DNA from: Cenarchaeum sp.
GTDB lineage: Archaea > Thermoproteota > Nitrososphaeria > Nitrososphaerales > Nitrosopumilaceae
Direction: 5' to 3'
NCBI GenBank assembly: GCA_965212015.1
Contig: OZ243037.1
Location: forward strand, 1,216,001-1,280,000
DNA length: 64,000 bases
Shown here piece after piece: positions 27,451 through 32,193 of the stretch. Below the pieces are notes generated by a model. The model did no database searches. It was not told the DNA's origin and saw only the letters and a list, made by a program, of their open reading frames with translations. The number at the start of each line of letters is the position of its first letter. Positions within the stretch are counted from its first letter, which is position 1. The position numbers and the translations under genes are program-made.

Positions 27451-28581
27451 CTAGTCCACAAACGGTTTTGGGTGGTTGAGGATTATCTTGGATACCTCGG
27501 GCCTCATGATGAACTCGTTGGGCGGGATCTTTTGCTGTATCTGTTCGCGAAGCTTGGTGCCGCTGATCTGCTCCCGGTCTTCTGCGGCGTGCGGGCACGC
27601 CTTGGGATTCGTATAGGTCAGGCATTTTTTGCAATAGAAAAACGCCGGGAAAAAGACCGGCTTTATCTCGAGATCCTCGTAATCCTCAAAGATCCTGTGC
27701 GCCGCAAACGGATCATAGTATTTTCCCACCCCGGCGTGATCACGGCCTATTATTATGTGCGTGCAGCCATAGTTCTGCCTCATGATGGCGTGGTGAATCG
27801 CCTCCCTGGGGCCGGCATACCTCATCTCCGTGTGCAGCGTGGCCAGCGTGCACCTGTTCTGCGGGTAATAGTGGCGTATCATGGCCTCATAGCACTGTAC
27901 GATTACCTCGTCGACGAAATCGCCGGGTTTTTTCTTGCCCACAAGCGGGTTTACAAACACCCCGTCCCTGGTGGTGATGCTGGTCTTTTGAAGCATCTCG
28001 TGTGCGACGTGGGGCGGATTCCTGGTCTGAAACGCCACTATGGTCTTCCAGTTCGCCTGCGAGAACGATTCGCGCGTCTGGGTGGGAGTCATGCGGTATT
28101 TGCGCGTGGGGGTCTCTTGCGGCCTCTGGATATAGTCTATCTTTCCGCCCACCAGATAGTCCCCCATGGACTGCGTCCTGGCGACGCCCGGATGGCCCGA
28201 ATCAGTCGTCCCATAGACCCCTTTTGCCATTTTTTCCTTCTCAAACTTGTATACGTCGTCTGCGTGGATTATTGCAATGCCGGTGCCCTGCGGATTCTGC
28301 AGCAGGACGTCAGAGTCCTTCATCCTGCCGGCGGTCTTTTCGTCCACGTCGAGCACCACCGGAATGGTCCACGCAGTCTGGTCTGCAAGCCTTCCGTGGT
28401 CCAGTACGCCCTCAAAGTCCGCCCGGCCCAAAAACCCCTCCAGCGGGCTGAATATTCCGTCTGCAATATTCTCCACGTCGTTTGCAAGGCCCTCGGAGAT
28501 CCTTACCGATTCCATCCCGGACGGATCGGTGCGGGTAAAGCGGTTGATCAGCGATCCCCCGTGCGGCCTAATTCCGGTCAT
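27451..28581 (-). CDS. sat: Sulfate adenylyltransferase
   Basis: [41 protein letters not shown]. Confidence 0.96.
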
Positions 28582-29303
28582 GCCAACTCCTTGTAATCCA
28601 CGTGCATGCCGCATTCCTTGTGTCCGTCTTGCTCCCACCACCACCGTCCGGCCCTCTTGTCCTCGCCGGGTTTGACGGCCCTGGTGCAGGGGGCGCATCC
28701 GATGCTCGGGTATCCCCTGTCTAGAAGCTTGTTGTAAGGTATGTCGTTTTGTTTAATGTAATTCCACACGTCGTCCCACGTCCAGTCAACGATCGGGTTG
28801 ATCTTGAGAATCCCGCCGTGCTGTGAATCAAGCTCAAAGATCCGCGCGCCGGTCCTGTTTTCTGTCTGATCCTGGCGCAGTCCCGTAATCCACCCGTCAA
28901 GGGTTCCGAGTATTTTGTCCGTGGGATTGATCTTTCGTATCTGGCAGCAGAGCTTTCTGTTCTCGGGGCTGTCATAGAACAGATTGACTCCGCGTGTCCG
29001 TACCATCTCCTCGACTTCGTCTGCGTCAGGAAACAGGATTTCAAGTTTGATGCCGTATTTTTTTGCCGTTTCGTCCATTATGTCATAGGTCTCCTGCGGC
29101 AGCCTTCCCGTGTCAAGCGTAAAAAACCTGAATTCCGGGTTTATCTTTACCATCATGTGGGTTATGGCGGCGTCCTCTGCGCCAAAACTGGACGCCTTGG
29201 CCACGCCGGGATGCAGATTCTCAGAGGCCCATTTAATGGCCTCCTGCGCGGTGCCGAACTGTGAGTTTAGCTCGTCGACTTGGGACTGGGAGAACTTTGT
29301 CAA
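28578..29303 (-). CDS. cysH: APS/PAPS reductase (Fe-S-type Cys pattern)
   Basis: [42 protein letters not shown]; TTG start at 29303 inferred. Confidence 0.92.
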
Positions 29304-29540
29304 CGAGCCTGCTGGCCCGATTTGTTTTATATTTGATTGCAAGCGTGGTTCCACGCAAAGCATTCTTGCCGACATCCGTTCCTGCCGTCCTGCCTCCCTT
29401 ATGTTTGTGGCTGGGCGCACAAGATCTGTATTGGCCGCACACGCTGCCGCAGGCCGGACTGTTTCAGGCGGAAATATCCGCGCTGCGGGATTTTTTCTCC
29501 AGTCCGCGCATATGGAAAGGCACGTGCATGCCATTTAGAT

Positions 29541-29680
29541 AAAAAATGGCGTGATCCCTAGTTTGCAGGAACTTTGGGAGACTACCTCCCGGTTCAGGCC
29601 CACTCGTGGCGCCTGATTTCACATTTTGTCCTGCGGGATCACGCAGCTCTAGTCGATAGTAATTGGATCTATCGGCATCA
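29541..29680 (-). ncRNA. Candidate structured RNA with a 9-aa micro-ORF
   Basis: 10-bp terminal helix 29549-58/29635-44 enclosing three further helices; upstream TTAAATA and downstream T6 on the minus strand. Confidence 0.5.
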
Positions 29681-29914
29681 CACAGTATAGTAATTATTAC
29701 TATTTAACATTTAGTATGAAAATTCATATAAAATCAACCGTCATATTGGAATTTTTTGAGGCTAAATGATGCAAATGTCCGGATCCGGACCGGTGCAGAT
29801 GGCATGGCAGGAGCAGCCGGCGGCGGAATCCCGCACGCTGCGGGTCTGCACCTGCAAAAAAACGGCGCGGAGGTGGAAATAGAATTAATAGTACAGGTGC
29901 AAGACTCGAGAGCC

Positions 29915-30124
29915 ATGGAGCAGCTCAAAAAGAGAAAGATTCGCCTGATTATCCTGCTTGCAGTCATTTGGTTTGTCATTACACTTCCGCTTCCGTGGAT
30001 TGTCGGAAATCCCGACGTAAAAGAGTCCTCGTTTTACACAATTCTGGGAATCATTGGAATCATGTCGATTCCGTTTGTCATGCTGGGAATTGTCTGGACC
30101 CTAAAGCCAGAGCTTACAACATGA
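29915..30124 (+). CDS. Small two-TM membrane protein
   Basis: MEQLKKRK followed by two hydrophobic helices; ATGA overlap with cysQ. Confidence 0.75.
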   Translation: MEQLKKRKIRLIILLAVIWFVITLPLPWIVGNPDVKESSFYTILGIIGIMSIPFVMLGIVWTLKPELTT

Positions 30125-30927
30125 AAGTTCCCATACAGGACAAGATGCCCGAGCTTGACTTGGCCATAGAGGCCGCACTCACGGCGGGCCGGGAGATAAT
30201 GAGAATCTACCGGACTGATTTTTCGTCGGGAACCAAGGCCGACGATTCTCCCATTACCGAGGCGGACCTGGCAAGCAACCGGATAATAAGGGACATACTT
30301 GCAAGGTCGGGCCACTATATTCTGTCAGAGGAGGATGCGGACAGCGCAGACAGGCTAAAGGAGACCGTTCTGTGGATTGTAGATCCGCTGGACGGGACGT
30401 CGGACTTTATCGACAGGACGGGAGAGTTTACCGTAATGGTTGCGCTGGTACGCGACGGCAGGCCGGTAATAGGGGTGATTAACTGGCCGGACGGGGGCGA
30501 GCTGTTCGTGGCACAGAGGGGCGGCGGCGCATTCAGGCTCTCCGAGGGAGAATGGAGGGGGATTGCAGTCAGCCCCGTCACGGAGCTGGGATCGTGCAGG
30601 ATTGTCGGAAGCAGGCACCACCTGTCCCGTCTGGAGCGCGATCTAATCGGCAAGATGGGCATAGGCGAGTTTGTCAGCGTGGGCAGCTCCCTGAAGGCCT
30701 GCAACGTGGGCTCTGGAAAGGCAGACGCGTACTTTACCCTGACTAACAAGATGAACGAGTGGGACTCTGCGGCATCAAGCTGCATAGTGACTGAGGCAGG
30801 CGGAAGGATTACCGACATGTGCGGTAATGAGATCACGTACAACGGCGGCGACGTCAGGCACCAAAACGGGATATTAATCAGCAACGGCGGCCTGCACGAA
30901 AAGATTCTGAGGGCCGTACTAGATTAG
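30121..30927 (+). CDS. cysQ: 3'(2'),5'-bisphosphate nucleotidase (inositol monophosphatase family)
   Basis: SPITEAD, LSEE, WIVDPLDGT, GSSLK, EWDSAA; context with sat/cysC. Confidence 0.9.
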   Translation: MKVPIQDKMPELDLAIEAALTAGREIMRIYRTDFSSGTKADDSPITEADLASNRIIRDILARSGHYILSEEDADSADRLKETVLWIVDPLDGTSDFIDRTGEFTVMVALVRDGRPVIGVINWPDGGELFVAQRGGGAFRLSEGEWRGIAVSPVTELGSCRIVGSRHHLSRLERDLIGKMGIGEFVSVGSSLKACNVGSGKADAYFTLTNKMNEWDSAASSCIVTEAGGRITDMCGNEITYNGGDVRHQNGILISNGGLHEKILRAVLD

Positions 30928-31434
30928 ATTTCTGGATTTCAGGTGATCCTTTACCTTGCCTGCGGACTCTGTTAATGACTCGTGTTCTGCGTCAATTAGG
31001 AGATCCGGACTCTCCGGGGCCTCGTATGGATCGTCGATTCCCGTAAATCCCTTTATTTCGCCGGCCCTTGCCTTTGCATACATTCCCTTTACGTCGCGCT
31101 TTTCGCACTCTTGCAGCGAGCATTTCACATAGACCTCGGAGAATTGATCGTCGGATGCTATGATCTTTTTTGCAGTGGAGCGGTTTTCAGCATACGGGCT
31201 GACAAGGGAGACGCAGCTGGAAACCCCGTGCCGGAGCAGGAGCTTTGCCAGATGGGCGACTTTTCTGTTGTGCTCGTCGCGTCCGGCCTTTGAAAAGTCC
31301 TTTGGCGAGAACCATTCGCGCAGCTCGTCGCCGTCAAGCATTGCCAAATTGGGAACGTCCTTTTGCAGCTCTTGGACGATCGTGGTCTTTCCAGAGCAGG
31401 GAAGTCCAGTCATCCACAAGACAAACGGCTTCAT
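30919..31434 (-). CDS. cysC: Adenylyl-sulfate kinase
   Basis: GLPCSGKTT, LDGD, RDVKGMY, FTGIDDPYEAP. Confidence 0.95.
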   Translation of the reverse strand: MKPFVLWMTGLPCSGKTTIVQELQKDVPNLAMLDGDELREWFSPKDFSKAGRDEHNRKVAHLAKLLLRHGVSSCVSLVSPYAENRSTAKKIIASDDQFSEVYVKCSLQECEKRDVKGMYAKARAGEIKGFTGIDDPYEAPESPDLLIDAEHESLTESAGKVKDHLKSRNLI

Positions 31435-31501: not shown

Positions 31502-32038
31502 CTAGCGGCACCAGTCCTGCGATTCTAGCACCCCAATCTCCCTTACCATCTCGTCTATCCTCTTTGAGGTGGCAGTCACGGCCTGGAAATACTCGAACAT
31601 TTCCCTCTCTTCTAGCTCGTCGATGGCTTTTTGCGCCTCATCAAAGAACCTGTCCTCCTTTTCCAGATGGTCCCGCAGGTAAATGCAGTAGGTCCTCATG
31701 AACCTGGCAACCGGCTCCCGTGCGTCCTCGCCGTTCTTCCATCTTTTTAGGTGCCGGGATATCTGAAACGCCACGTTGCGCCCAAACTGGTGCTCTATGA
31801 GAAACTTTCTTAGCTCCTCGGCAAAGCCGCCAGAGGCGCCAACGCACGGAAAATACGAGTCCTCCTCCCTGGAATAGTGGATAGAGTCCAGAAACTCGGA
31901 TATTATCAGCGTAATCTTTTCCATGTCCTCAAACGGGATGTCGGCCCCGCCGTACAGCGCCTCGTAGCATTTCGTAATCACCTTTTCAAGCCGCCTTACG
32001 TGCTTGTGATCCCCCCTCAGTGCGTCGGTGGCACTCAT
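31502..32038 (-). CDS. Hemerythrin-like domain protein
   Basis: H..., HxxxEE, EH, HxxKED metal-ligand pattern. Confidence 0.85.
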   Translation of the reverse strand: MSATDALRGDHKHVRRLEKVITKCYEALYGGADIPFEDMEKITLIISEFLDSIHYSREEDSYFPCVGASGGFAEELRKFLIEHQFGRNVAFQISRHLKRWKNGEDAREPVARFMRTYCIYLRDHLEKEDRFFDEAQKAIDELEEREMFEYFQAVTATSKRIDEMVREIGVLESQDWCR

Positions 32039-32193
32039 GCAGGCAATCCACCTGGCTCTTAATTTTAATCTGCGGCATTGCCCGCCGGGGAGATTTTTTG
32101 CGGCAGAATGCGGCGGGTGAATCGGCGCATTGTTTTCAAGCAAAACATTGTTGACAGGGCTTTTAAATAAACCCGGCAAGGAACTCGAGTTGG

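Follow-up and report, generated by a model that had tools for sequence, protein, structure and literature searches.

A small structured RNA gene with a putatively leaderless nine-codon reading frame throughout the ammonia-oxidising archaeal family Nitrosopumilaceae

Comparative analysis of a 64,000-nucleotide stretch of a Cenarchaeum sp. genome (the window) has identified what the sequences of its relatives indicate to be a small structured RNA gene that is present throughout one family of ammonia-oxidising archaea, the Nitrosopumilaceae. Members of this family are abundant marine nitrifiers, and the genome from which the window was taken encodes archaeal amoA, so we take its host to be an ammonia oxidiser. 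The RNA is predicted to be about 138 nt long and to run on the minus strand from about 29678 to 29541. An initial annotation of this DNA had proposed a structured unit of about 140 nt at this location, and the unit turns out to be real, with a conserved fold that exhibits covariation. Among the readings offered by that annotation it is the novel small RNA that has held up, as the element is without an Rfam or tRNA match, comes with a conserved promoter and a T-rich end of its own, and is both family-wide and covarying. We rate the element as a new RNA family. Its general type, a structured small RNA that carries a short ORF, is broadly familiar, and it is the leaderless build that is unusual. 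The accessible text of the literature that was searched (including PMC5069720 and PMC13475601) describes no small RNA of such kind in these archaea.

The element is located on the minus strand, and all of the positions in the initial annotation, which cover the helices, the TTAAATA box, the ATG at 29678, the nine-codon ORF with its hairpin and the T6 run, were verified in the sequence. In the direction of the predicted transcript, the promoter (29700..29714) combines a BRE-like CTAAAT with the TATA box TTAAATA(G) downstream of it, the heptamer being at 29707-29701 and the ATG 29 nt further on; this assignment draws on the position of the heptamer in other copies and on genome-wide spacing. A conserved ACTATA at 29686..29691 (-13 to -8 from the ATG) resembles a proximal promoter element, a role read from its position only. 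The putative leaderless mini-cistron, ATG-CCG-ATA-GAT-CCA-ATT-ACT-ATC-GAC-TAG, occupies 29649..29678, would encode MPIDPITID-stop and is recognised by conservation of its start, frame and stop. Hairpin P0 (29654..29674) lies within this mini-cistron and pairs CGATAG (29674-69) with CTATCG (29659-54) across a 9-nt loop. The stop codon TAG (29651-49) is positioned 4 nt ahead of P1, a distance that ranges from 1 to 5 nt among 63 copies. The three-way-junction domain (29549..29644), as defined by fold and covariation, contains four helices: P1 (GCGTGATCCC at 29549-58 with GGGATCACGC at 29635-44), P2 (GCAGGA at 29565-70 with TCCTGC at 29629-34, extending in the fold to 29634-28 with 29571-65), the variable hairpin P3 (TCAGGC-CCA with TGG-GCCTGA, 29616-29594) and P4 (GGGAG at 29576-80 with CTCCC at 29586-90, which reads GGGAG-GUAGU-CUCCC in the RNA from 29590 to 29576). 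A 6-nt bulge, AAACUA, separates the 3' strands of P2 and P1, and the 3' end (29541..29548) is formed by CA followed by T6 (29546-29541).

A BLASTN search against 60 relatives returned matches of 70-87% identity in many genera within the same family, and 19 of these matches were used to build an alignment (A1) and a covariance model (R1). Among the family genomes sampled, the model finds a match in 138 of 151, a tally that includes the unpublished genomes G101, G115 and G116 and becomes 135 of 148 without them; 26 of 27 genera and 110 of 115 high-quality genomes are represented. The genus that has no match (0 of 4 genomes) has genomes of 0.8-0.9 Mb. Relatives carry one to four diverged copies per genome with every match spanning the whole model, while the element is single-copy in the window's own 1.76-Mb, one-contig genome. 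An order-wide sample placed R1 in 23 of 23 genomes of the family and in none of 127 genomes from 19 sister families. Likewise, a second model, built from 92 aligned matches and run with laxer filters, found nothing in 24 genomes of those families. The copy-based results below refer to 91 distinct copies that were aligned from among the 150 R1 matches listed, with 57 distinct copies used for pair statistics.

The MFE fold of the minus strand is a three-way junction plus the ORF hairpin (-52.9 kcal/mol, z -3.58), and 1 of 200 shuffles folded as well. The plus strand folds equally well or better (z -5.84 versus -3.58), and thus folding energy alone does not decide the strand. The aligned copies are more informative. 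Across the 57 distinct copies, 94.5% of pair cells hold standard pairs, as compared to 36-53% when the partners are slid, and compensatory changes on both sides occur in 21 of 28 base pairs, with none of 500 shuffles matching these values. Such changes affect 8 of 10 pairs in P1, 7 of 7 in P2 and 5 of 6 in P0, the last with 82.8% of its cells paired. P4 is almost invariant save for one pair that alternates between A-U and G-C, and the segment between P2 and P4 forms a stem-loop in 57 of 57 copies even though its sequences are unrelated between copies. The copies are kin, which means that these counts overstate their independence; the slid controls retain the same kinship and still fail. G-U cells outnumber A-C cells by 104 to 18 in the same copies, from which it follows that the minus strand is the RNA strand. 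Beyond the pairing itself, conservation is concentrated at invariant helix ends (GCG...CGC-C) and in the GAGG..UCUC of P4 in the junction, and there is no long conserved single strand. The search for relatives and covariation suggested by the initial annotation has therefore yielded homologues as well as 21 covarying pairs, and comparison of the copies indicates structure and conservation beyond chance.

The element does not correspond to an RNA family that we could recognise. At gathering scores Rfam 15 reports only two tRNAs in the whole window, both elsewhere, and relaxing the threshold to E values up to 10 for 29300-29950 adds two chance-level hits that are both outside of the element. The view of the initial annotation that the sequence does not fit the tRNA, SRP, RNase P, hammerhead, TPP or cobalamin consensus stands after the Rfam scan that it had suggested. 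ARAGORN detects no tRNA, tmRNA or tRNA-like domain at the locus; these identities were discarded given the negative ARAGORN and Rfam tRNA results and a P3 loop that is unrelated between copies. The SRP RNA, RNase P RNA and 5S rRNA are located elsewhere in the same genome. Guide RNAs are marked by a C box (RUGAUGA) and D box (CUGA), or by an ACA box 3' of a stem, and both the C/D-box and H/ACA types were rejected as these boxes are missing from the alignments as judged by eye. Specifically, there is no C box because any of A, G or C can precede the AUG, CUGA is confined to a few copies, and the variable bases after P1 leave no ACA box. A Y RNA was likewise dismissed, as a search for the Ro/TROVE domain (PF05731) gave no match in this 99.7%-complete genome. 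The 3' strands of P2 and P1 (CCUGC-N6-GGAUCAC, 29549-29571, minus strand) do resemble the 3' end of the genome's own 16S rRNA (CCUGCGGUCGGAUCACCUCC, C1 ~876,950-876,990, plus strand). Mimicry of 16S rRNA was rejected because in relatives P1 and P2 covary away from the 16S-like sequence and the likeness is lost, so the resemblance is probably a coincidence.

Sequence signals at both ends suggest that the element constitutes its own transcription unit, with a conserved promoter and a T-rich end that would delimit the transcript. In 76 of the 91 copies a TTAAATA-like heptamer starts 28-30 nt ahead of the start-codon A, and the conserved upstream sequences have CCTATA as their family consensus between about -13 and -8 relative to the ATG. 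The promoter pattern of the RNA recurs at only one other place in the same genome (C1:1528934-1528961, minus strand), where it is weak and has two mismatches. The distribution of TATA-like heptamers ahead of the first ATG of 1099 long ORFs in this genome has its peak at 28-32 nt. This spacing implies that leaderless mRNAs are common in the organism, and it suggests that they may be the rule. The ATG of the RNA sits exactly at the position that is expected of a leaderless start codon. Downstream of P1, at least five T in seven are found within 30 nt in 78 of 90 copies, and TTTT occurs in the same interval in 60 of 90 copies versus 30 of 90 for an AAAA control. The T-run is a probable archaeal oligo-U terminator; a hairpin is not known to be needed for termination in archaea.

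The reading frame is retained to an extent that its peptide is not. The 91 distinct copies start with ATG in 87 cases and GTG in two, with neither codon in the remaining two. The mini-ORF has nine codons in 85 copies, eight in five and there is one outlier, with all five length variants differing by exactly 3 nt. An in-frame stop is present in 90 of 91 copies, where it may be TAA (62 copies), TGA (15) or TAG (14). Among 67 distinct ORF regions there is no internal stop triplet in frame 0, while the other two frames have them in 50 and 18 of the 67 regions. Base composition gives a 59% chance of eight open codons, and thus premature stops would be expected in approximately 41% of these regions, as compared to the 0 of 67 observed. 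Conversely, the 91 copies encode about 60 different peptides with no recurrent residue run. Differences between near neighbours fall on codon positions 1, 2 and 3 in 23, 34 and 23 cases, and 18 of 80 substitutions are synonymous (22.5%) versus a random expectation of 22.4%. Column entropy is without 3-nt periodicity, and the two loop A's of P0 are near-invariant regardless of codon position. Taken together, these patterns in the copies indicate that selection keeps the start, frame, length and stop but not the peptide. The micro-ORF described in the initial annotation is therefore conserved as a reading frame, while the peptide that it would specify changes at a random rate. The start, stop and frame could be held in part by constraints at the RNA level, with the ATG at the initiator site and the hairpin fixing the spacing. 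In addition, a stable hairpin located 4 nt past a leaderless AUG would be expected to be a poor context for initiation. The kept frame may signify that ribosome transit matters, or that RNA-level constraints imitate an ORF, and we favor the first of these on the pattern of conservation.

The element resides in the window beside a set of sulfur-activation genes (27451-31434). This cluster includes sat (27451-28698, minus strand), cysH, an inositol-monophosphatase-family gene (29968-30927, plus strand) and an APS kinase gene (30919-31434, minus strand), with a hemerythrin-domain gene next to it (31502-32179). The inositol-monophosphatase-family gene could encode a CysQ-like PAP phosphatase, and a gene of this family is often the divergent upstream neighbor of the RNA in relatives as it is in the window. 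The cysH gene, a member of the PAPS-reductase family (PF01507, E 1.4e-48), spans 28578..29331 on the minus strand including its TATA box. Its longest ORF is 318 aa (28578-29534, minus strand) and has an ATG at 29534, only 8 nt past the T-run. However, CysH of relatives starts just before the motif TKFTQEQVDELN (TKF(T/S)Q.QVDELN), for which the window equivalent is TTG 29303 and a 241-aa protein. A TATA box, TATAAAA (29331-29325), lies 28 nt before this TTG in a stretch that matches the promoter of a relative, and the N-terminus aligns with that relative's ATG start. The start in relatives together with the conserved TATAAAA place the cysH start at TTG 29303, and the 318-aa ORF is thus an over-extension. 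The spacer between the two units (29332-29540, ~210 nt) is ~55% G+C, with 29600-29799 lower at 0.40, and it holds, on the plus strand, a terminator-like hairpin with T6 after it (29477-29495). The spacer may have been left behind when a rearrangement placed the RNA beside cysH.

The interpretation that we prefer, and to which we give somewhat better than an even chance, is that of a stand-alone small RNA that retains a leaderless mini-cistron in order to engage ribosomes, an engagement that competes with junction folding. Transcription would be driven by the strong BRE/TATA promoter and would start at, or within 1-2 bases of, the AUG. Given this start, the RNA would open as a leaderless nine-codon mini-cistron. 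Most of the mini-cistron is predicted to fold into P0, after which P1 would close a junction that is formed by P1-P2, the variable P3 and the conserved P4 and is followed by oligo-U. We read the mini-cistron as a site of ribosome engagement because it is the start, frame, length and stop that are kept and not the peptide. An initiating ribosome at the 5' AUG would have to melt P0, and a terminating ribosome at the stop would cover the 5' strand of P1. If so, then translation and the folded junction would be mutually exclusive, and the RNA could toggle between an mRNA-like and a folded state. The junction itself most likely acts in trans by binding a protein or a ligand. Such a binding module is favored over a base-pairing seed since the helix ends and the P4 loop are conserved while there is no long conserved single strand. 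A more specific possibility, which we hold only tentatively, is that the RNA is a family-specific ribosome-gated device in which translation melts P0 and P1 and thereby switches the junction, as an aptamer or as a protein-binding module, off or on.

Several alternatives dispense with translation. The one that carries the most weight, although we consider it rather unlikely, is that the small RNA has a structural or regulatory role and no coding function at all, for instance as the RNA subunit or scaffold of a ribonucleoprotein, with the ORF a by-product. The ATG would then represent an initiator or initially transcribed sequence, the UAA-like triplet would be an A-rich linker and the hairpin would set their spacing. 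Entropy that lacks codon periodicity, loop A's that are conserved whatever their codon position, a peptide that is not under selection and a P0 that covaries as RNA are all as such an RNA would have them, and a hairpin that follows immediately upon the AUG would presumably disfavor initiation. What this explanation does not accommodate well is the total lack of premature stops, the five of five length variants that shift by one whole codon, or the use of three stop types with no sense codon at that position in 90 of 91 copies. Furthermore, all three bases of the ATG are equally invariant, the A included, and initiator elements are not known to need an invariant A at this position. Far less probable, indeed barely credible, is the idea that the element functions as DNA, be it as a protein-binding palindrome, a mobile repeat or a MITE, or that it is an aberrant tRNA gene. 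The long perfect inverted repeats and the good folding of both strands would suit a DNA element, but the excess of G-U over A-C cells and a P3 that is a variable stem-loop point to an RNA, and the negative ARAGORN and Rfam tRNA results on the element argue against a tRNA gene. A virus or mobile element was rejected upon a pattern scan of viral contigs that returned no matches, and a MITE or other repeat was rejected on copy number, with one copy in the window's genome and one to four diverged copies in relatives. The initial annotation had named a multi-copy MITE as an outcome that would count against its reading; this genome has a single copy.

Other alternatives tie the RNA to a neighboring gene. 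The initial annotation had suggested that the element might attenuate the sulfate-assimilation operon, either through a leader peptide or in the manner of a riboswitch, and in the window's genome it does have that appearance, as it is co-oriented with cysH-sat and its short ORF leads into a stem and a U-tract. The stated distance of about 240 nt upstream of cysH is correct only for a start at TTG 29303, which the T6 precedes by ~238 nt, and does not apply to the longest ORF that begins at 29534. Against attenuation by read-through, a search of 24 family relatives found cysH in all 24, and it is 11-113 kb from the RNA wherever the two are on one contig, with adjacency restricted to the window's genome. 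Moreover, cysH keeps its own TATAAAA promoter as in the relative, and a co-oriented operon directly downstream is not the rule, given that the next gene is convergent at 35 of 50 loci and that additional convergent cases occur. The recurring 5' UTR association that is expected of a sulfate riboswitch or leader is lacking across the relatives, and the mini-ORF peptides of the 91 copies have neither conserved residues nor enrichment of regulatory codons. These comparisons indicate that the RNA does not regulate cysH-sat and largely refute the attenuator, which we consider very improbable even for the window's genome.

The convergent gene itself deserves more consideration. At those 35 of 50 loci (only loci with 2 kb or more of context being counted) its product is a membrane-anchored protein of ~144 aa that has no Pfam match and carries the motif FHVTLADP...FRFVPNGDSP...TWDY...IDPNGN..GPVSV; examples are L003:1668-2102 (minus strand), L004:993-1430 (plus strand) and 33 other loci, and the window's own genome has a member at C1:1341900-1342313 (minus strand). 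At the 35 loci the 3' end of the RNA abuts or overlaps the stop codon of this gene, and in 31 of them the frame of the gene ends within -10 to +21 nt of the 3' end of the RNA model. This proximity, along with an A-rich junction J2/3 that would read as a T-run on the opposite strand, could denote a local cis module in which the RNA pairs as antisense with the 3' end of the convergent gene or provides a bidirectional terminator for both. We nevertheless regard this as improbable. The convergent neighbor is missing at 15 of 50 loci, as is the case for the copy in the window and for the majority of second and third copies, and the homologue in the window's genome is 96 kb from the RNA with a 3' flank that has no similarity to it. 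Covariation, the G-U asymmetry and a promoter of its own also indicate a folded sense RNA and not a mere terminator. A trans-antisense action on this homologue was rejected on account of the unrelated flank, and the plus-strand ORF 29110-29538, which was considered as a homologue of the convergent neighbor, exhibits no similarity.

With the preferred interpretation, a stand-alone RNA that is engaged by ribosomes, the element can be compared with several known systems. SgrS/SgrT, RNAIII/delta-haemolysin and SR1/SR1P are bacterial dual-function small RNAs that encode conserved, functional peptides of 26-43 aa. The element resembles them as a small transcript that is predicted to be independent and that has a short ORF along with a conserved structured part. 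It differs from them in that its 9-residue peptide drifts at a random rate, its ORF is leaderless and inside a hairpin, and no base-pairing seed is evident. In the nine-codon leaders of cat-86 and cmlA, the ermC leader and regulatory uORFs, translation itself remodels adjacent RNA directly upstream of the gene that is controlled. The ORF of the element is of similar size, and we propose that here too it is translation and not its product that remodels the RNA; unlike these leaders, the element appears to have its own terminator, is usually followed by a convergent gene and has no known link to a drug or ligand. The trp, his and phe attenuators also have a short ORF ahead of a stem and U-tract, but the element lacks their regulatory codon runs, a conserved downstream biosynthetic operon and any evident antiterminator pairing. 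Among orphan three-way-junction RNAs and riboswitch aptamers one likewise finds a closing helix, one variable arm, and conserved covarying helices with a loop, yet the element has no Rfam match at E values up to 10 and is not situated in the 5' UTR of a conserved gene class. Additionally, tmRNA is a stable RNA that carries a short ORF, as the element does, and Y RNA shares with it a U-tail and a long, bulged terminal stem. Unlike tmRNA, the element has no tmRNA or tRNA-like domain by ARAGORN; unlike for Y RNA, there is no Ro/TROVE protein in the genome; and in contrast to both, the element is limited to one family.

One immediate consequence is a corrected local annotation, with the start of cysH moved to TTG 29303 and the sulfate-assimilation genes not placed under the control of an RNA switch. 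The element has an unusual build, in which a leaderless mini-ORF with a kept frame and a free peptide is fused to a three-way junction. As it is near-universal in the family, strongly promoted, supported by covariation and undescribed in the text accessible to our literature search, it constitutes a concrete new object of study that offers a direct test of translation-coupled RNA switching in archaea. If the ribosome-gated device were true, then as far as that literature shows it would represent an unreported class of translation-sensing archaeal riboregulator. Such a device would couple the translational capacity of the cell to a trans-acting RNA function.
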